A stretch of DNA of 63,757 nucleotides, the filler included. It is 7 parts of 7 records of this genome, joined end to end, with 100 filler letters (N's around TTAATTAATTAA, not from the genome) between each part and the next. Parts side by side here need not be neighbours in the genome. Positions count along the whole stretch, not along the records: positions 51,713 to 56,746 come from SRR31156797_58180; 6 more parts are not named here. The stretch is one strand, 5' to 3'. This document shows positions 9,216-63,290 of this stretch, one piece after another. Under the pieces are notes generated by a model. That model was not told the origin of the DNA, did no database searches, and worked only from the letters and a program-made list of their open reading frames with translations. How positions within the stretch are numbered: position 1 is the first letter of the stretch; each line of letters starts with the position of its first letter. Position numbers and translations under genes: made by a program.

Positions 9216-9315
9216 NNNNNNNNNNNNNNNNNNNNNNNNNNNNNNNNNNNNNNNNNNNNTTAATTAATTAANNNNNNNNNNNNNNNNNNNNNNNNNNNNN
9301 NNNNNNNNNNNNNNN
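9216..9315. other. Artificial contig spacer (N run with TTAATTAATTAA)
   Basis: 100-nt N block with all-frame stop linker; GC content jumps across it. Confidence 0.98.
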
Positions 9316-9466
9316 AAGCAGGTCGCCGTAAAGGCGAAACCTTTAGAATAATATCGTTTGCATTTTCACTGCGAATGCACGCACCATCTACCTCAAAATG
9401 AATATCCATTCCCAAAGTATGAAGAGCCTTGTCTCCTCTTCATGAATTCTTTACATTCATTCAATC

Positions 9467-33144: not shown

Positions 33145-33244
33145 NNNNNNNNNNNNNNNNNNNNNNNNNNNNNNNNNNNNNNNNNNNNTTAATTAATTAA
33201 NNNNNNNNNNNNNNNNNNNNNNNNNNNNNNNNNNNNNNNNNNNN
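33145..33244. other. Artificial contig spacer
   Basis: N run with TTAATTAATTAA. Confidence 0.98.
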
Positions 33245-40073: not shown

Positions 40074-40173
40074 NNNNNNNNNNNNNNNNNNNNNNNNNNN
40101 NNNNNNNNNNNNNNNNNTTAATTAATTAANNNNNNNNNNNNNNNNNNNNNNNNNNNNNNNNNNNNNNNNNNNN
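40074..40173. other. Artificial contig spacer
   Basis: N run with TTAATTAATTAA. Confidence 0.98.
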
Positions 40174-46154: not shown

Positions 46155-46254
46155 NNNNNNNNNNNNNNNNNNNNNNNNNNNNNNNNNNNNNNNNNNNNTT
46201 AATTAATTAANNNNNNNNNNNNNNNNNNNNNNNNNNNNNNNNNNNNNNNNNNNN
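46155..46254. other. Artificial contig spacer
   Basis: N run with TTAATTAATTAA. Confidence 0.98.
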
Positions 46255-51612: not shown

Positions 51613-51712
51613 NNNNNNNNNNNNNNNNNNNNNNNNNNNNNNNNNNNNNNNNNNNNTTAATTAATTAANNNNNNNNNNNNNNNNNNNNNNNNNNNNNNNN
51701 NNNNNNNNNNNN
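51613..51712. other. Artificial contig spacer
   Basis: N run with TTAATTAATTAA. Confidence 0.98.
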
Positions 51713-51831
51713 TAAACCGCTCCGGTCAAATTTTTTACAACAACCTTATCGCTCGGCAACCTTAGTTGTTTTACCTAAGATCTGTACTGCAAATAGGATT
51801 TAATCATTTTAAACGGACGAATACCAAACGA

Positions 51832-51847
51832 TGGCACCGGAATTGCT
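51832..51847 (+). promoter_or_regulatory. Sigma-54 (-24/-12) promoter of the methylamine operon
   Basis: TGGCAC-CGGAA-TTGCT is an exact match to TGGCAC-N5-TTGCW, oriented toward the operon. Confidence 0.85.
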
Positions 51848-51899
51848 AATTGCTGTTTCGCATTACCATTTCTGTTGCGATGAATACGACATGCGACCG

Positions 51900-52060
51900 T
51901 AGGGTTCGCGCAAGAATAAATACGTAGATTGTCAGCGTTCAGGCGCCTGCTCGGCAAGGCGTGAAAACAAGGGAATACAGGTGTATCCCGTGTTTTCGTA
52001 ACGCAGCTGAGCGGGATGAATCGACGCTGAAAATATGAAATTAATTTTGCGCGAGCCCTA
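51900..52060. mobile_element. 161-nt palindromic MITE/ERIC-like element in the operon leader
   Basis: Terminal IR TAGGGTTCGCGCAAGA / TTTTGCGCGAGCCCTA plus nested stems TCAGCGT/ACGCTGA, CCTGCTCGGC/GCTGAGCGGG, GAAAACA/TGTTTTC and GGGA.TACA/TGTATCCC. Confidence 0.65.
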
Positions 52061-52095
52061 AGTACTGAGAAGAAATAAAAATCAGGAGAAAAACG

Positions 52096-53112
52096 ATGAT
52101 GACCCCCAAAGAAAGAGTGATGGCAGTTTTCCAACATGAAAGTCCAGACCGTATTCCCTGCTTCGGGGCCAACTCCACGGTCAACTATGCCCAAATGGAA
52201 TCGGTTCAGGCTTTCTGGCCCGAAGGCCATGAAAAGGGGGACGTGATGTTCAAACAGGCCCTCGCATCTCATACGGTAGTGGGCTTCGATGCGGTCCGGG
52301 TTCCCTTTTGTCAGACGATGGAGGCTGAAGCCCTGGGTTGCAAAATTAAACCCGGAAAAGGTGTGGACGGCCTTCAAGGGATCCCCGGCATCGACCACCC
52401 GCCTCCATACAAACTGGATGACGACATTGAATTTCCGGGCGACTTTCTCGAAAGAGGCCGTATTCCCGAATTGCTCAAGGCCGTGCGCATGCTCAAGGAG
52501 GAACTCGGCGACGATGTGCCCATCGTGAGCGGGATCATCGGCCCATTCACCATTGCAGGATCCATGCTCGATTCTGTGCCCATACTCAAAGCGTCCTTGA
52601 AGAATCCGGAAAGCCTCCGCCCCTTTCTCGATGTCGCGGAAAAAGCAGGGACCACCCTTGCCAAGGCGCTCATCGAAGCCGGGGCGGATATCATCTCTTG
52701 CGAGGATATGACCGCTTCCCCCCTGATGATTGCCCCCAAAACCTACCGTGACTATGAGTTGGAGTACCAGAAGCGACAGTTTGACGCCATCGACGCGCCC
52801 AAAATCCTGCATATCTGCGGCGATGTGTCCAAAATCATCGAATGGATGGGAGAGACCGGTGCGGATGCCATCAGCCTGGAGCCGAAAACGAACCCGAAAC
52901 TGGCCAGGGAAAAATGCGGACCGGACACGATTCTCATGGGTGGTGTGGACACGGCCACGACATTGTTCATGGGATCCGTAGCTGACGTAAAAAAAGCATG
53001 TGAAGAATCCATCGCCAACGGGATCCAGATTCTCGCTCCGGGATGTGCGGTGGGACCGGGAACCCCCATGGAAAATCTGCTGGCCATGGTCGAAGTGGCT
53101 AAAAACCATTAA
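52096..53112 (+). CDS. MtaA/MtbA/CmuA-family methylcobamide:thiol methyltransferase (URO-D fold)
   Basis: PFC.T.EAEALG, GPFT.A and Zn ligands LHICG...APGC. Confidence 0.88.
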   Translation: MMTPKERVMAVFQHESPDRIPCFGANSTVNYAQMESVQAFWPEGHEKGDVMFKQALASHTVVGFDAVRVPFCQTMEAEALGCKIKPGKGVDGLQGIPGIDHPPPYKLDDDIEFPGDFLERGRIPELLKAVRMLKEELGDDVPIVSGIIGPFTIAGSMLDSVPILKASLKNPESLRPFLDVAEKAGTTLAKALIEAGADIISCEDMTASPLMIAPKTYRDYELEYQKRQFDAIDAPKILHICGDVSKIIEWMGETGADAISLEPKTNPKLAREKCGPDTILMGGVDTATTLFMGSVADVKKACEESIANGIQILAPGCAVGPGTPMENLLAMVEVAKNH

Positions 53113-53121
53113 AGGATCGTC

Positions 53122-54819
53122 ATGAGCAGATTCGGAATTGCGATCGACCTGGGTACATCCGGATTCCGGGCCCAAGCAATGGATCTCGACCGAGACACCG
53201 TTCTCGCAACGGCCGTCACGGCCCGGCATCCTCTGCCCGGTGCCAATGTGATGGACCACCTCCATTTTGCCATCGAGGCCGGAACCCAAACCGCTCACGA
53301 AGTCGTTATCCAGGCGGTCAACCGTCTCATCAAAGAGCTGGGCGTACCGGTAGACCAAATCGTCCGGCTGGCCGTTTGCGGCAACCCCATTCAGGTCTCC
53401 CTTTTTCAGGAGATCGAAATCCGAGACCTGGCCTATGCCGGTGAACGTAAGCGAAAAGCTCTGGGTATCGTCGAACCCGAAAGGAACGCCGCCATCATTC
53501 CCGCCGGAGAAATTCGCGGTCTTTTGCTTCCGGAGGATGCGGAAGTACTGATCCCGCCGGCGGTCCGGCACGAAATCGGCGCTGATGCCCTGGCCATGAT
53601 GATCAAGACCGATATCCTCCAAAAGGAAGAGCCCACCATTGTCACGGACTACGGCACCAATGCCGAAATGGCCCTGGTGGTGAACGGCACGGTCTACACC
53701 GGCTCAACAGCCGCCGGCCCTGCACTGGAAGGCCAGCAGATCTCCAACGGGATGCTGGCACTGCCCGGTGCCATCAGCGATGTAACGTTCAACGGCAATA
53801 AGCTTCAGACACAGGTGTTGGGCGAAAACATGGCCCCCCTGGAAGGCGCCGTGGTCGACCCGCAAAACGGCCGGATTTTCCGACGGGGAGGGGCGGCAAA
53901 AGGAATCACCGGGACCGGCGTTATCGCTCTGATTGCCGAAGCGATGCGAACGGACATAATCCACCTACCCAAAATCCATTGTGCGGACAACGCCTTTCAT
54001 CTTCCGGACGGCCTGGTATTTACGGAAAAGGATCTTACCGAAGCCGGTAAAGCCATCGGCGCCATTCGCGCCGGGCACATTTCCCTTTGCAAAGCCGCCG
54101 GTATCAAAATGGAAGAGATCTGTGCAGCCTACATGGCCGGCGCCTCAGGCACCTACGTGGACGCCGTCAAGGCACGGGATATCGGTCTGGTTCCCGCACT
54201 GGCGGATAAGGTCTACCAGGTGGGCAATACCTCGCTGGCCATGGCCTGCGACATGGTGAAAGAACCGGACGAACTCTGGCGTCTCGAGGCACTGTCCGAA
54301 GAGCTGCGACAGCACCACTGCATGTTCGCCACTTCGGATGCATTCGAAAAGGCCTACATTCTGGAGCTCTCCTACTGGACTGAAGGAATGCCCATGGATC
54401 AATTCCGTGTGTTTCTGCGTCAGTTCCATCTCCCGGACCTTCCGCAACCCGAAACACTGCCCGAAGTAATACGAACTTCGGCCCAGGATATCGCCGAATG
54501 GGGTGTGCGGGGGCTTTCTATCATCGACACTGTGGATGAGAAAAAAAACGCGCTGTTTGCCGGGTGCACAGCCTGCCAAGCATGCGTTGAGGAATGTCCG
54601 GAGACGGCGCTTCGCATCAAAAACACGCAGGAAAATCCACAATTCTCCCTGGATCTTTCACGATGCAACGGGCTGGCCTGTCTTCGTTGCGAGCAAGTCT
54701 GCCCGGAAAACGTATTCGACTACAAAAAAATCGTTTTACAGGGTTCTTCAACGGACACTGTGATGGTGCCGCCGCAACGGTGCGACGGCAACGTAAGCAA
54801 CTCACTTGAAAGGAGGTGA
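53122..54819 (+). CDS. ramA: Methylamine corrinoid protein reductive activase (RamA-type ASKHA ATPase, C-terminal 2x[4Fe-4S])
   Basis: DLGTSGFRAQ, RHPLPGANVMDHL, HEIGADALA, TDYGTNAEMAL, AAGPALEG; CTACQACVEECP and CNGLACLRCEQVCP. Confidence 0.9.
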   Translation: MSRFGIAIDLGTSGFRAQAMDLDRDTVLATAVTARHPLPGANVMDHLHFAIEAGTQTAHEVVIQAVNRLIKELGVPVDQIVRLAVCGNPIQVSLFQEIEIRDLAYAGERKRKALGIVEPERNAAIIPAGEIRGLLLPEDAEVLIPPAVRHEIGADALAMMIKTDILQKEEPTIVTDYGTNAEMALVVNGTVYTGSTAAGPALEGQQISNGMLALPGAISDVTFNGNKLQTQVLGENMAPLEGAVVDPQNGRIFRRGGAAKGITGTGVIALIAEAMRTDIIHLPKIHCADNAFHLPDGLVFTEKDLTEAGKAIGAIRAGHISLCKAAGIKMEEICAAYMAGASGTYVDAVKARDIGLVPALADKVYQVGNTSLAMACDMVKEPDELWRLEALSEELRQHHCMFATSDAFEKAYILELSYWTEGMPMDQFRVFLRQFHLPDLPQPETLPEVIRTSAQDIAEWGVRGLSIIDTVDEKKNALFAGCTACQACVEECPETALRIKNTQENPQFSLDLSRCNGLACLRCEQVCPENVFDYKKIVLQGSSTDTVMVPPQRCDGNVSNSLERR

Positions 54820-54823
54820 ATGG

Positions 54824-55468
54824 ATGGATAAATCAGAATGGTTTGAAAAAGCCGTGGAGAGCATCATGGCCGCGGATGAGGAAACCGCCGTGCAAGTGGC
54901 TCAAGACGCCCTCGCCGAGGGTATTGATCCGCTTGAAATGATCAACAGTGGTTTTTCCGAGGGCATTCGGAAGCTGGGCGACCTCTTCGATACAGGGCAG
55001 GTTTTTTTGCCCACCCTGATCATCGCATCCGAGGCCATGGTCAAAGCCGTGAAGATTCTGGAGGAAGCGCTTCCCCAGTCAGAACAGCCCAAGTCCATGG
55101 GAAAGGTCGTTATTGGAACCATTGAAGGCGATGTCCACGACATCGGCAAGGGCATTGTCGTTACAATGCTTAAGGTTTACGGATTCGAAGTTCACGATCT
55201 GGGAAGAGATGTGCCTGTGCAGGAATTCGTCGACAAGGTCATCGAAATCGACGCTGATTTTGTGGGCTCATCCGCCCTGATGACGACCACCCAAGCGGGG
55301 CAAAAGAAACTTGAAGAGGCCCTCGTTGAGGCTGGTATTCGTGACAAGGTAAAAACGATGGTCGGTGGCGCCGTGGCTACGCAAAGTTGGGCCGATAAAA
55401 TCGGTGCAGATATTTATGCGGAGACCGCAAGTGATGCCGTCATGAAACTCAAAGAAATGGTAAGTTGA
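54824..55468 (+). CDS. mtbC: Methylamine-specific corrinoid protein
   Basis: Cap domain plus GDVHDIGK B12 motif, SALMTTT, MVGGA; directly upstream of mtbB. Confidence 0.85.
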
Positions 55469-55482
55469 GAGGAAATGATGCA

Positions 55483-56746
55483 ATGACCAAGTATTTAACA
55501 CGACGCGGTGACGGCGCATTGATCGAAATGACGGCGGACGAACTCCGTTCGGAAATCGACGCAGGGACTGCCGATGCCGCTGAAATCGGAAAGATACCGG
55601 CACTGTCGGAAGACGATATATCCATGCTGATGGACATCTTCATGGATAAAAACCGTTTCGTCAGTGTCGAACCGGGCAATGAAGTGCCTTTGAGCCACGA
55701 CATCGGTCCATTGCGGCTCATGGGGGATCAGGGGAACAGCGGGGTCGGCATACCGCTGTCCCGGCTCCACGGAATCCAGGTGCACGAACGGGCCTTTTGT
55801 TCGGACACCATGGAACTGGGTCACATCGACTACAGTTTCAAGCCGGTCAAACCGGTGATCGCCATGGAAACCCAGGAGATGGAAAACGCCCTTCTCGCTA
55901 CGGTCCTGCCCTTGTACTACGGCGCCATGCCCAATCTGGGGACCTACTATAAGCCCGACGGACCCTTCGGGAACCCGTCGGACCTTCTCCCAATGGGAAA
56001 GGTGAAGGAAGCCTGGGAAGCGCAGGAAGAGGCTGTGACGCACGCCACACGGGACATGGTCTACATCTGCGAGGCCATGGATCAAGTGGGAGCGGACGGC
56101 ATCAACTTCGACACGACCGGTGCTGCCGGAGACACGGACTTTCTGGCAACACTCAACACAGTTGAGAAGATTAAACAAACGACCAATCTCAGCGTGGAAG
56201 TCGGCATGGCCGGTGAATTCGTTCTGGGCATGCACGGCAACCTGACCTACGATGGACAGCGTCTCGCTGGGCTGTTCTGCCATGACCAGGTCAAATTGGT
56301 AGAGAAGGCCGGGGCCGATATTTTCGGGCCGGTGGTCAACACCAAGCCAGGCAAGTCCATGCCCTGGAACCTGGCCCGGGCGGTGACCTTCGTCAAGGCC
56401 TGCGTTGAGGCTTCAACCATACCGTGTCACGTAAACATGGGAATGGGTGTCGGCGGAACGCCGGTATTCGAGACCCCGCCCATCGATTCGGTATCGAGAG
56501 CTTCGAAGGCCATGGTGGAAATCGCGAAAGTTGACGGGTTGTAGATCGGCGTGGGAGACCCCATGGGAATGCCGATCGCACACAGCGTGGCAGCGGGTAT
56601 TGGTGGAATAAGGACCGCCGGAGATCTGGTGGCCCGCATGCAAATGAACCGCAAGATGCGGATTGCAGAAGCCAAAGCCTATGTCGCAGAAAAGCTGGGT
56701 GTCACACCGGCCGACCTGTCCAATGTACATGTCATGCGCGAGGTCC
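55483..56746 (+). CDS. mtbB: Dimethylamine:corrinoid methyltransferase with pyrrolysine at TAG 56542-56544 (codon 354); 3' truncated
   Basis: MtbB motifs [40 protein letters not shown]; frame continues through TAG as [18 protein letters not shown]...[11 protein letters not shown]. Confidence 0.95.
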
Positions 56747-56846
56747 NNNNNNNNNNNNNNNNNNNNNNNNNNNNNNNNNNNNNNNNNNNNTTAATTAATT
56801 AANNNNNNNNNNNNNNNNNNNNNNNNNNNNNNNNNNNNNNNNNNNN
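56747..56846. other. Artificial contig spacer
   Basis: N run with TTAATTAATTAA. Confidence 0.98.
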
Positions 56847-60294: not shown

Positions 60295-61905
60295 GTGAAG
60301 ATACTACAGATACTACTGACACTCACCATATGTTACGGATCCGTACCAGGGCAACCTCGCCAGGAAACCCCATCCGGGGAATCAACGGAAATCGCAGCCG
60401 TCGCTAACGAGATCGACAGACTGATCCTGGATGACCTGCACAACGCCGGAATCAAACCCGCCAGGCTCTGCTCAGACGAAGTCTTCATCCGACGCGTCTA
60501 CCTGGATACCATAGGAACACTGCCAACGCCAGATGAAGTCCGCAGCTTCCTCGACGACGACAGCAGCAACAAGCGCAGCATCCTGATCGACCAACTGCTC
60601 GAACGCGAAGAGTTCGCAGACTACTGGTCTCTCAAGTGGTGCGATCTGCTTCGTGTTAAATCCGAGTACCCGATCAATCTCTGGCCCAATGCCGTCCAGG
60701 CCTACCACCGCTGGATCAGGGATTCCATCAAAACCAACAAACCATACGACCAGTTCGCCCGGCAGCTCCTGACATCCAGCGGAAGCAATTTCCGGGTTCC
60801 GCCCGTCAATTTCTATCGCGCGATGCCGGACCACGAAACATCAACGATCGCACGAACGGTCGTACTCACCTTCATGGGAGAACGAATCGAACACTGGCCA
60901 GAAGACAAACGCAGCGACCTGGAAAACCTGTTCTCACGGGTTGCTTACAAAAAAACCGCCGAATGGAAAGAAGAAATCGTCTACCCCGACCCGACTGCTT
61001 CCACGGCTCTCAATGCCAGGCTCCACAGCGGCCAGTCCGTCAAGATTCCCCCGGGGGATGATCCCCGCCGCGCATTCGCTGACTGGCTGATCGCCCCGGA
61101 CAACCCGAAATTCACACAACCAGTCGTCAATCGAATCTGGTACTGGCTGTTCGGTATCGGAATCATTCACGAACCTGATGACATCCGACCCGATAACCTG
61201 CCGATCAATCCTCAGCTGCTCGCGTACCTCCAGCAGGAACTGGTGAAATCCGAATATGACCTGAAGCACATCTATCGCCTGATCCTCAACTCAAACACGT
61301 ACCAGCGATCCAGCATCCCCGCCTCGAATAACCCCGAAGCCGAACGAAGATTCGCCAACTATTCCATCCGCCGGCTCGATGCCGAAGTCCTGATCGATGC
61401 CATCTGCAGAATCACGGACACGACCGAGTCCTACTCGAGCCTGATCCCGGAACCGTTCACCTTCATCCCGGGTGAAAACCACTCGATCGCCCTGGCCGAC
61501 GGAAGCATCACGTCACGCTTCCTCGATCTGTTCGGCCGGCCTTCACGCGACTCCGGACTCGCTGCCGAACGCCACAACAACCCGACCGACGCGCAGAAGC
61601 TCCACCTTCTGAACTCGAGTCATATAAATAACAAACTGAAAAACCTGTCGATAGAGTCAGCCAGCCGCTCCAGTGATTCAGAAAAACGAAAAACAAGACG
61701 TTCACGAAGAAACTCAGGCCGGGCAAAACTGTCACCCGAAACCGTAACGGAACTATACCTGTTGGTTCTCTCCCGTTACCCGACAGAAAACGAACTGGCC
61801 ATCATCAAGGACTACGAAAAACACGCTGAAGCCAAAGGCAAAAACGTACTGATCGACATCACCTGGGCACTGATCAACACACCGGAGTTCCTGTACCGAC
61901 ATTAA
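60295..61905 (+). CDS. DUF1549/DUF1553 domain protein (planctomycete-type)
   Basis: N.ID..I, D..FIRRVYLD.IG.LPT, N.PYDQF, VNRIW..LFG.GI, RRL.AE...DAI and WALINT.EF motifs. Confidence 0.9.
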   Translation: MKILQILLTLTICYGSVPGQPRQETPSGESTEIAAVANEIDRLILDDLHNAGIKPARLCSDEVFIRRVYLDTIGTLPTPDEVRSFLDDDSSNKRSILIDQLLEREEFADYWSLKWCDLLRVKSEYPINLWPNAVQAYHRWIRDSIKTNKPYDQFARQLLTSSGSNFRVPPVNFYRAMPDHETSTIARTVVLTFMGERIEHWPEDKRSDLENLFSRVAYKKTAEWKEEIVYPDPTASTALNARLHSGQSVKIPPGDDPRRAFADWLIAPDNPKFTQPVVNRIWYWLFGIGIIHEPDDIRPDNLPINPQLLAYLQQELVKSEYDLKHIYRLILNSNTYQRSSIPASNNPEAERRFANYSIRRLDAEVLIDAICRITDTTESYSSLIPEPFTFIPGENHSIALADGSITSRFLDLFGRPSRDSGLAAERHNNPTDAQKLHLLNSSHINNKLKNLSIESASRSSDSEKRKTRRSRRNSGRAKLSPETVTELYLLVLSRYPTENELAIIKDYEKHAEAKGKNVLIDITWALINTPEFLYRH

Positions 61906-61919
61906 CAGGAGTGTTACCA

Positions 61920-63290
61920 ATGAAAGTAAACAAACACACACCGAATCCGATGAATACGCACCTGACTCGCCGCTCCCTCCTGAAGAGCGGCCTGTACGGT
62001 GCAGCCGGAACAATACTAGGCAGCCACCTGCTCCCATCCGTCATTGCAGCAGGATCATCAGACACCCTGCCCTCCTCGACAGCCAAAGCAAAATCTGTCA
62101 TCCAGATCTGGATGTGGGGCGGCCCATCACAACTCGACACGTTCGACCCGAAACCCGATGCAGGCGATGCCTATACAGGCCCCCTGAACAATCCCATCGA
62201 AACCAACGTCAAGGGAATCCGCATCGGCGAACTGCTGCCCGAAATGGCAAAACAGGCCGACAAGTACTCCATCATCCGAAGCATGACCCACGGCGTCTTC
62301 GCTCACGAAACGGCAGCATACCTGACCCAGACCGGCCGCATGCAGGGCGGAGAAGTCATGTACCCCGCCGTCGGCGCCGTGGCATCCTGGTTCAAAGGAT
62401 ACAACACCGGCTACAAGGGCCTCATCCCCCCGTACATCGTACTGACGAAATCGCAGGGCCGATTCTCCGAAGCAGGCTTTCTGGGTCAGCGGTATATGCC
62501 GTTCGCAACAGGCGGAGACCCATCGAAGGATCCATTCGCAGTCGAAGGAATCATTTGCGAAGGCATCTCCCAGAGAAGACAGAAAGAACGACGCGAACTG
62601 CTCGGTAAACTGGACAGTCTCAGCCAGACGCTTCCCGATCATCCGGAATTCGAAAAGCTGAAGAAAAGCGAAGACAAAGCCTATGACCTGATCCTCGGCG
62701 ACGGGGCAGCCGTCTTTGACCTTTCCAAAGAGCCGGACGAACTGCGCGAACGATACGGCAAAAACAAGTTCGGACAGTCCTGCCTTGCCGCTCGCCGACT
62801 GGTCGAAAACGGCGTCCCCTTCATCACCATCAACTACGAAGGCTGGGACACCCACAAGAACCACTTCCAGACCATGCGACAGAAACTCCCGCAGATGGAC
62901 CAGGGCATCGCAACCCTTCTGCAGGATCTGTCCGATCGCGGCCTGCTCGACAGCACCATCGTCTGGTGGTCAGGCGAGTTCGGACGAACACCGAAGATCC
63001 AGTGGGAACCGCCCTACAATGGCGGACGAGGCCACTGGGGCAGCGTCTTTTCAGCTCTGCTCGCCGGCGGCGGATTCAAAGGTGGCCACGTGGTCGGCAG
63101 TTCGGACGACCGGGGTGAACACGTCAAGGACCGCCCCGTCTACCCGTGCGACCTGATCGCCAGCATCTACACACAGATGGGGATCGACCCGAACGCATAC
63201 TTCCCCCACGAATTCAGCAAAAGAATTCGCGTCACACCTTCCGCAGAAGATGGCGTAAAGATGGGCGGTCACCTTAAGGAAATCATGTAA
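61920..63290 (+). CDS. DUF1501 domain protein (Tat-exported)
   Basis: LTRRSLLK Tat motif; GGPSQLDTFDPKP, LAARRLVE.GV, GWDTH and GEFGRTP motifs. Confidence 0.92.
   Translation: MKVNKHTPNPMNTHLTRRSLLKSGLYGAAGTILGSHLLPSVIAAGSSDTLPSSTAKAKSVIQIWMWGGPSQLDTFDPKPDAGDAYTGPLNNPIETNVKGIRIGELLPEMAKQADKYSIIRSMTHGVFAHETAAYLTQTGRMQGGEVMYPAVGAVASWFKGYNTGYKGLIPPYIVLTKSQGRFSEAGFLGQRYMPFATGGDPSKDPFAVEGIICEGISQRRQKERRELLGKLDSLSQTLPDHPEFEKLKKSEDKAYDLILGDGAAVFDLSKEPDELRERYGKNKFGQSCLAARRLVENGVPFITINYEGWDTHKNHFQTMRQKLPQMDQGIATLLQDLSDRGLLDSTIVWWSGEFGRTPKIQWEPPYNGGRGHWGSVFSALLAGGGFKGGHVVGSSDDRGEHVKDRPVYPCDLIASIYTQMGIDPNAYFPHEFSKRIRVTPSAEDGVKMGGHLKEIM

Follow-up and report, generated by a model that had tools for sequence, protein, structure and literature searches.

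An in-frame TAG codon, very probably read as pyrrolysine, in the dimethylamine methyltransferase gene of a methylamine-use operon of likely bacterial origin

Genes of the mtbB contig

The stretch of DNA analysed here (the window, positions 1-63757) consists of seven contigs joined via N spacers. The sixth contig (51713-56746; 5034 bp, GC 0.55) carries four genes, the last of which, mtbB, contains an in-frame TAG codon. The features of this contig and the spacers of the window are the following.

52096..53112, plus strand: MtaA/CmuA-family (URO-D fold) corrinoid methyltransferase, candidate MT2; stop codon TAA; PF01208, 229.7 bits
53122..54819, plus strand: RamA, reductive activase of methylamine corrinoid protein; stop codon TGA; TIGR04270, 776 bits (cut-off 500)
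54824..55468, plus strand: cognate corrinoid protein (MtbC-like); stop codon TGA; TIGR02370, 251.5 bits (cut-off 215.3)
55483..56746, plus strand: mtbB, dimethylamine:corrinoid methyltransferase; first 421 codons, cut at the contig end
56542..56544, plus strand: in-frame TAG, codon 354 of mtbB, putative pyrrolysine codon
56747-56846: artificial spacer (a stop-codon linker flanked by runs of N) that parts two unrelated contigs and is not biology
9216-9315, 33145-33244, 40074-40173, 46155-46254, 51613-51712: the other spacers of the window

The genes follow one another in the order MtaA-like gene, ramA, corrinoid protein gene and mtbB, and are tightly packed, with intergenic spacers of 9, 4 and 14 nt, respectively, the genes for RamA and the corrinoid protein lying directly upstream of mtbB (spacers of 4-14 nt). 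Purine-rich ribosome-binding sites are present ahead of three of the four start codons, the clearest being the GGAGG in front of mtbC, and ramA is without a clear site. The start of the corrinoid protein gene was placed at the ATG at 54824, which follows this GGAGG; the longest open reading frame (ORF) opens at a TTG at 54806. RamA displays matches to PF14574, PF17651 and Fer4_7, with a ferredoxin domain for two [4Fe-4S] clusters at its C-terminus. The MtbC-like protein possesses B12-binding and B12-binding_2 domains and scored 238 bits against the MtbC equivalog model NF041607, under the cut-off of 350. An antisense ORF of 615 aa (51775-53622, minus strand) overlaps the MtaA-like and RamA genes and is presumably a by-product of the GC-rich coding sequence on the opposite strand.

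The window evidently mixes contigs of several organisms. GC content is 0.36 for contig 1 versus 0.52-0.56 across the others. Contig 2 (9316-33144) matches the closed 3.7-Mb genome G001 at 97-98% identity and is the sole one of the contigs tested (1, 2, 3, 5, 6 and 7) to match it closely; contig 5 yielded a weak match (64%), and for contigs 1, 3 and 7 as well as for the mtbB contig no match to G001 was found. Contig 7 (60295-63290) contains neighbouring genes for PSCyt2 plus PSD1 (DUF1549/DUF1553) and DUF1501 proteins, a pairing that we take to be typical of Planctomycetes and their relatives, and probably does not come from the mtbB host. Because the window has several source organisms, the mtbB contig has to be judged alone, and genome-wide inference from the 'bin' to which the window belongs is unsafe. 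The mtbB contig was found in one sequencing run only, its probable source, and no RNA run is listed with it. Searches of the Logan contigs returned matches to it of only 18-26 nt, none of which extends over the TAG site.

A separate observation concerns the beginning of contig 2, the first 68-87 bases of which (within 9316-9400) match 38 other sites of G001 at 77-96% identity. Several of the G001 copies are arranged in twos or threes, some 380-410 bp from each other; the contig start and these copies constitute a dispersed family of short repeats.

The in-frame TAG codon of mtbB

The product of the fourth gene matched PF09505 with 688 bits and TIGR02368 with 597.4 bits (cut-off 369.1), the latter match spanning positions 3-423 of a profile of 466, and is confirmed by these profile scores as a genuine dimethylamine methyltransferase MtbB. 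Its start codon (ATG at 55483) and the TAG at codon 354 were both read directly from the sequence. An earlier reading of the window, made from the sequence alone, had noticed that the ORF track splits the gene at the TAG, that the frame nevertheless continues to the end of the contig, and that the other three genes of the operon do not end in TAG. All three observations hold. Translation table 11 gives two ORFs, 55465-56544 and 56551-56802; with the TAG read through, 421 codons without any other stop extend up to the N spacer at 56747, of which 67 lie between the TAG and the contig end. The stop codons seen in the three preceding genes are TAA, TGA and TGA, and with three genes only the absence of a TAG stop has no statistical weight. 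mtbB is without its own terminal stop in the contig, which reflects a limit of the assembly and is not counter-evidence to its family membership. In the copy from the bacterial genome G454 the TAG is followed by 112 residues and then by TAA; from this length, about 45 C-terminal residues appear to be missing from the window copy (421 of ~466 codons).

The sequence-only reading had further placed the TAG at the pyrrolysine (Pyl) column of MtbB, in a DG(I/L)-O-IGVGDP context, and had proposed an alignment with Methanosarcina MtbB as a check. In an alignment with 80 relatives from species-representative genomes (82 alignment pieces), cultured Methanosarcina, Methanolobus and Methanohalophilus included, the TAG at residue 354 falls into the same column as the sole in-frame stop, likewise TAG, of all 80 sequences. 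The surrounding residues in these relatives conform to (V)DG(I/V/L)-TAG-(I/V/L/M)G(V/A)GD. TAG was also present at the aligned position in each of the 30 matched places spanning this residue in nine bacterial genomes. Judged by these alignments, the TAG does not stand at this codon by chance.

Most of the database entries for MtbB are truncated at the same point. Of the 120 best protein matches, 119 end at or before the TAG column and cover at most 84% of the query, and the three such shortened proteins that were inspected end in ...DGL. Standard gene callers evidently cut mtbB at the Pyl codon. In the lone full-length MtbB among the 120 (P0081, 468 aa), the Pyl column is occupied by Q, probably a TAG rendered as Gln by the pipeline or by an alternative genetic code.

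The MtaA-like second methyltransferase

The protein encoded by the first gene passed the cut-offs of the broader subfamily models NF004889 (312.7 bits, cut-off 244) and TIGR01463 (271.4 bits, cut-off 235.4) and scored under those of the two methanogen equivalogs, MtaA (NF040654; 302.1 bits, cut-off 400) and MtbA (NF041608; 244.6 bits, cut-off 600). It could be aligned end to end with the solved MtaA of M. mazei (E = 4.8e-67 to 4ay7), and the two proteins are identical at the H-x-C and A-P-G-C positions, which we take to be the zinc ligands. A copy of the MtaA-like gene with 68% identity is present in the genome G433, which has no MtbB, so that close homologues extend beyond the MtbB-bearing genomes and the enzyme may serve several corrinoid systems. 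Metagenome-assembled genomes (MAGs) labelled as Desulfobacterales contain a great many close homologues (72-82%). Tentatively, and with more doubt than confidence, we suggest that the MtaA-like enzyme, in which the residues aligned with the metal/thiol site of MtaA are kept, takes over the methyl group from the MtbC-like protein and delivers it to an acceptor in the cell that is possibly a thiol and not tetrahydrofolate.

Relatives and probable host

The closest MtbB proteins in the database are 75-89% identical to the window copy and carry no organism labels; for the nearest of them, the identity is 89% across the first 353 residues. A look-up of ten protein clusters returned organism labels from one, that of P0018 (79% identity), whose members are labelled Desulfobacterales bacterium or Desulfobacter sp. 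The organism-labelled MtbB sequences among the 120 best matches are archaeal only, at 61% identity. For the two upstream genes the labels are bacterial throughout: among the 120 best matches to RamA, all six labelled ones are bacterial (Deltaproteobacteria at 76%, followed by Proteobacteria/Pseudomonadota, Desulfobacterales and Desulfobacteraceae), and among those to the MtaA-like protein all seven are labelled Deltaproteobacteria (82%), Deferrisomatales, Desulfobacterales or Proteobacteria/Pseudomonadota. The contigs behind the top RamA match and the top MtaA-like match are both 9244 bp long; this shared length suggests one and the same gene pair of a single MAG.

Word-based scans of the genome and metagenome contig collections (genome_contigs and metagenome_contigs) retrieved relatives of 46-72% identity only; they missed the protein clade with 75-89% identity, which was reached solely through G454. 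This genome contains an mtbC-mtbB pair with 65-76% and 79% identity to the window genes, respectively (78-79% for the MtbB match), and G455, a member of the same genus, an MtaA-like gene (74%) with ramA (59%) directly after it. The partial synteny in the two genomes supports a bacterial placement of the window operon. Two irregularities were seen on the G454 contig (L196, G454:C233; 1616-2225 and 2353-3462): the mtbC homologue aligns as two pieces in different frames, and residues 1-51 of MtbB are unaligned. Frameshifts or assembly errors in this MAG are possible explanations.

In a quick maximum-likelihood tree of 64 rows, including 35 of the 93 loci and 28 of the 120 proteins, hand-picked for spread (midpoint root, quick search, SH-aLRT support), a clade of Methanosarcinales and Methanomassiliicoccales (support 99) is set apart from a group (support 99) with all the copies from bacterial genomes. 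The window MtbB nests inside the bacterial group together with G454:C233 and P0018. The tree also contains two sequences at odds with their labels. P0091, the MtbB of Candidatus Methanohalarchaeum thermophilum, stands on the bacterial side away from the other archaea, which hints at inter-domain transfer of mtbB; given this placement, tree position alone is no proof of a bacterial host. L021, from a 2-kb contig labelled Tissierellaceae bacterium, groups with copies from Methanomethylovorans and Methanosarcinaceae with 100% support; this contig appears to be archaeal and wrongly binned with a bacterial MAG.

These data bear on whether the same Pyl-coding mtbB might come from a methanogenic archaeon of the Methanosarcinales or Methanomassiliicoccales, with the MtaA-like protein acting as a true coenzyme M (CoM) methyltransferase. 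The best word-scan matches among species-representative genomes do belong to Methanosarcinaceae (64%), the candidate MT2 has M. mazei MtaA as a match and exceeds the 'methylcobalamin:coenzyme M methyltransferase' subfamily cut-off, and one archaeal MtbB is placed on the same side of the tree as the bacterial copies. However, far closer relatives exist, those of them with labels being Desulfobacterales, the named close matches of RamA and of the MtaA-like protein are all bacterial, the related gene pairs of G454 and G455 are in bacterial genomes, and MT2 remains under both methanogen equivalog cut-offs. We therefore regard an archaeal origin as improbable. From the Deltaproteobacteria and Desulfobacterales labels of the MtbB, RamA and MtaA-like kin, taken together with the tree position, the host is probably bacterial, most likely a bacterium of deltaproteobacterial type (Desulfobacterota) and not a methanogen.

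Pyrrolysine machinery in the window and in related genomes

In agreement with the sequence-only reading, according to which pylTSBCD are not in the window, neither a pyl gene nor a tRNA was found across its whole length. Verified Pyl proteins of the bacterial genome G400 used as queries gave no match to the window (best E = 0.087), and the same queries recovered pylSc, pylC and pylSn of another genome, G179, with E values of 4e-39 or better; the pylD piece of G179, cut by the edge of the locus, was recovered at 4e-9, and pylB lies outside that locus. G179 possesses pylS and tRNA-Pyl.

G001 was considered as a proxy for a Pyl-free host. No mtbB was found in this genome, nor any PylS or PylB over the cut-off, and at face value such an absence of pyl genes would speak against recoding. 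It is inapplicable here, since G001 matches contig 2 and not the mtbB contig, and the proxy was dropped. Where a 'nearest genome' corresponds to just one contig of such a mixture, the Pyl machinery may thus wrongly seem to be lacking.

Among 401 sampled genomes of the phylum to which G001 belongs, MtbB is present in two only, each with TAG, and in both PylS exceeds the cut-off, its gene sharing a contig with mtbB. Of the 68 genomes in the class of G400, 9 contain MtbB. Within the family f111, MtbB-TAG was found in four of the five genomes, the same four, G454 included, having PylS over the cut-off and the fifth having neither; these genomes are few and kin and do not represent independent cases. 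The complete set of genes is seen in G400, one of these four, on a single contig (C18), in the order mtbB(TAG)-pylSc-mtbC-pylB-pylC-pylD-tRNA-Pyl(CUA)-pylSn-mtbB(TAG), where each protein exceeds its curated NCBIfam cut-off and the tRNA was called by ARAGORN. The G400 proteins are deposited under the label of a Proteobacteria/Pseudomonadota bacterium MAG.

Ten MtbB matches, several of them fragmentary, are spread over contigs C50, C63 and C65 of G408, and one on C50 contains two TGA codons and one TAG. These matches could stem from paralogues in decay or from fragmentation of the assembly. A count of TAG stops based on longest ORFs (four f111 loci and the window contigs) was unreliable and is not used here: real genes lose out to antisense ORFs that are spurious, and fragments of mtbB are counted as TAG-ended.

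The reading frame downstream of the TAG

Mean identity to the 76 full-length relatives is 62.3% after the TAG and 59.2% before it. A comparison of the 67 downstream codons of the window with those of G454:C233 resulted in dN of 0.15, dS of 0.86 and dN/dS of 0.175. Taken together, the identity values and this ratio indicate that the downstream frame is translated and under purifying selection.

If the TAG were instead a true stop, mtbB would be a decaying or split gene, and its host would have lost the Pyl machinery or never possessed it. The lack of visible pyl genes in the window would fit such a scenario, as would the broken mtbB copies known in relatives, for instance that on G408:C50. It is opposed by the downstream frame, which is intact to the contig end and as conserved as the upstream part, by the compact and otherwise intact operon, and by the co-occurrence of MtbB-TAG with PylS in f111, small as that sample of kin is. 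We consider a true stop very improbable. It is hardly conceivable that faulty sequencing or assembly turned a sense codon into this TAG: the contig is a single metagenomic one and the matches in independent re-assemblies did not reach the TAG site, but a chance error hitting exactly the codon that is TAG in 80 of 80 and 30 of 30 relatives is not credible.

A recoding hairpin at the UAG was also considered. Folding of the RNA that begins at the UAG gave z = -2.6, 2 of 200 shuffled sequences being as stable. In 87 loci that yielded 88 segments, a strand filter having removed six others, the pairs of the hairpin are standard in 9 of 88 for pair 9-30, 35 of 88 for pair 6-33 and 86 of 88 for pair 3-36. 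Since the stem is not kept among these segments and is missing from the closest genome copy, that of G454, the hairpin was rejected as incidental. This agrees with the 2007 report, according to which there is no common RNA structure (PMC1976440).

Proposed pathway of dimethylamine use

We thus favour translation of the TAG, and homology together with the genomes of relatives supports the Pyl recoding proposed from the sequence. The explanation as a whole, namely that the 5-kb contig is the 3' part of a bacterial methylamine-use operon and that UAG354 of mtbB is translated as Pyl by machinery located elsewhere in the host genome, appears to us very likely. The codon would be read by tRNA-Pyl(CUA) charged by a split PylSc/PylSn, for which, as for the other pyl genes, we infer a place elsewhere in the genome, and PylBCD would make the pyrrolysine. 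The Pyl side chain of MtbB would bind and activate dimethylamine, one methyl group of which would be transferred to the Co(I) form of the corrinoid protein; RamA would return oxidatively inactivated Co(II) corrinoid to Co(I), and the MtaA-like enzyme would hand the methyl group to a cellular acceptor. We infer this chemistry by analogy with the methanogen enzymes.

The methanogen scheme of Pyl-containing MtbB, corrinoid protein, RamA and second methyltransferase is summarised in section 9 of PMC8318568. A bacterial host that has no methyl-CoM reductase would presumably feed the methyl group into C1 oxidation coupled to anaerobic respiration, a route proposed for trimethylamine in the same 2021 paper (PMC8318568). 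Pyl-dependent dimethylamine methyltransferases let bacteria resembling sulfate reducers compete with methanogens for methylamines.

Comparison with known systems

To our knowledge, there is no CoM pathway in the probable bacterial host. MtaA of M. mazei (4ay7) and the window MT2 have the URO-D fold family in common, and the latter is under the MtaA and MtbA equivalog cut-offs.

Read-through amber codons were reportedly first described in the dimethylamine methyltransferases MtbB1-3 of Methanosarcina barkeri, by Paul et al. in 2000. The window MtbB shares with these proteins the TIGR02368 equivalog, the TAG column and the motif D-G-(I/L)-O-(I/V)-G-V-G-D, and Methanosarcinaceae copies of MtbB are ~60-64% identical to it. 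The systems differ in that, with a probable bacterial host, the methyl groups would not end in methane. The expected decoder is the bacterial split-PylS cassette (pylSc, pylB, pylC, pylD, pylT and pylSn), which adjoins mtbB in G400, a member of the nearest genome-resolved lineage; it was seen there and not in the window.

Bacterial counterparts have been described twice in the literature on which we draw. The delta-1 symbiont of Olavius algarvensis has six Pyl-containing MtbB along with pylT, pylSn, pylSc, pylB, pylC and pylD (Zhang and Gladyshev 2007, PMC1976440), and a dimethylamine methyltransferase with in-frame Pyl is common among marine Deltaproteobacteria of a group with worldwide distribution (Kivenson et al. 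2021, PMC8318568). As far as the descriptions in these sources go, the window system shares with those of Olavius delta-1 and the marine Desulfobacterales the UAG at the Pyl column, a lineage of deltaproteobacterial type, and an adjoining corrinoid protein and RamA. It differs, in a comparison made via the papers' descriptions and not via sequences, in having an MtaA/CmuA-family gene at the head of the operon, whereas the genomes of 2021 are described as being without MtbA, with a MetH-family protein proposed as second methyltransferase (PMC8318568). With its compact mtaA-like/ramA/mtbC/mtbB order, the operon points to a concrete candidate enzyme for the second methyl transfer in bacteria; this MtaA-type MT2 candidate is the sole mildly new element, and the supplementary tables of PMC8318568 may already list such genes. 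The window mtbB itself is a new sequence of a known class, the bacterial Pyl-MtbB of deltaproteobacterial type, and, as this class has been in print since 2007 and again in 2021, the gene is real but ordinary.
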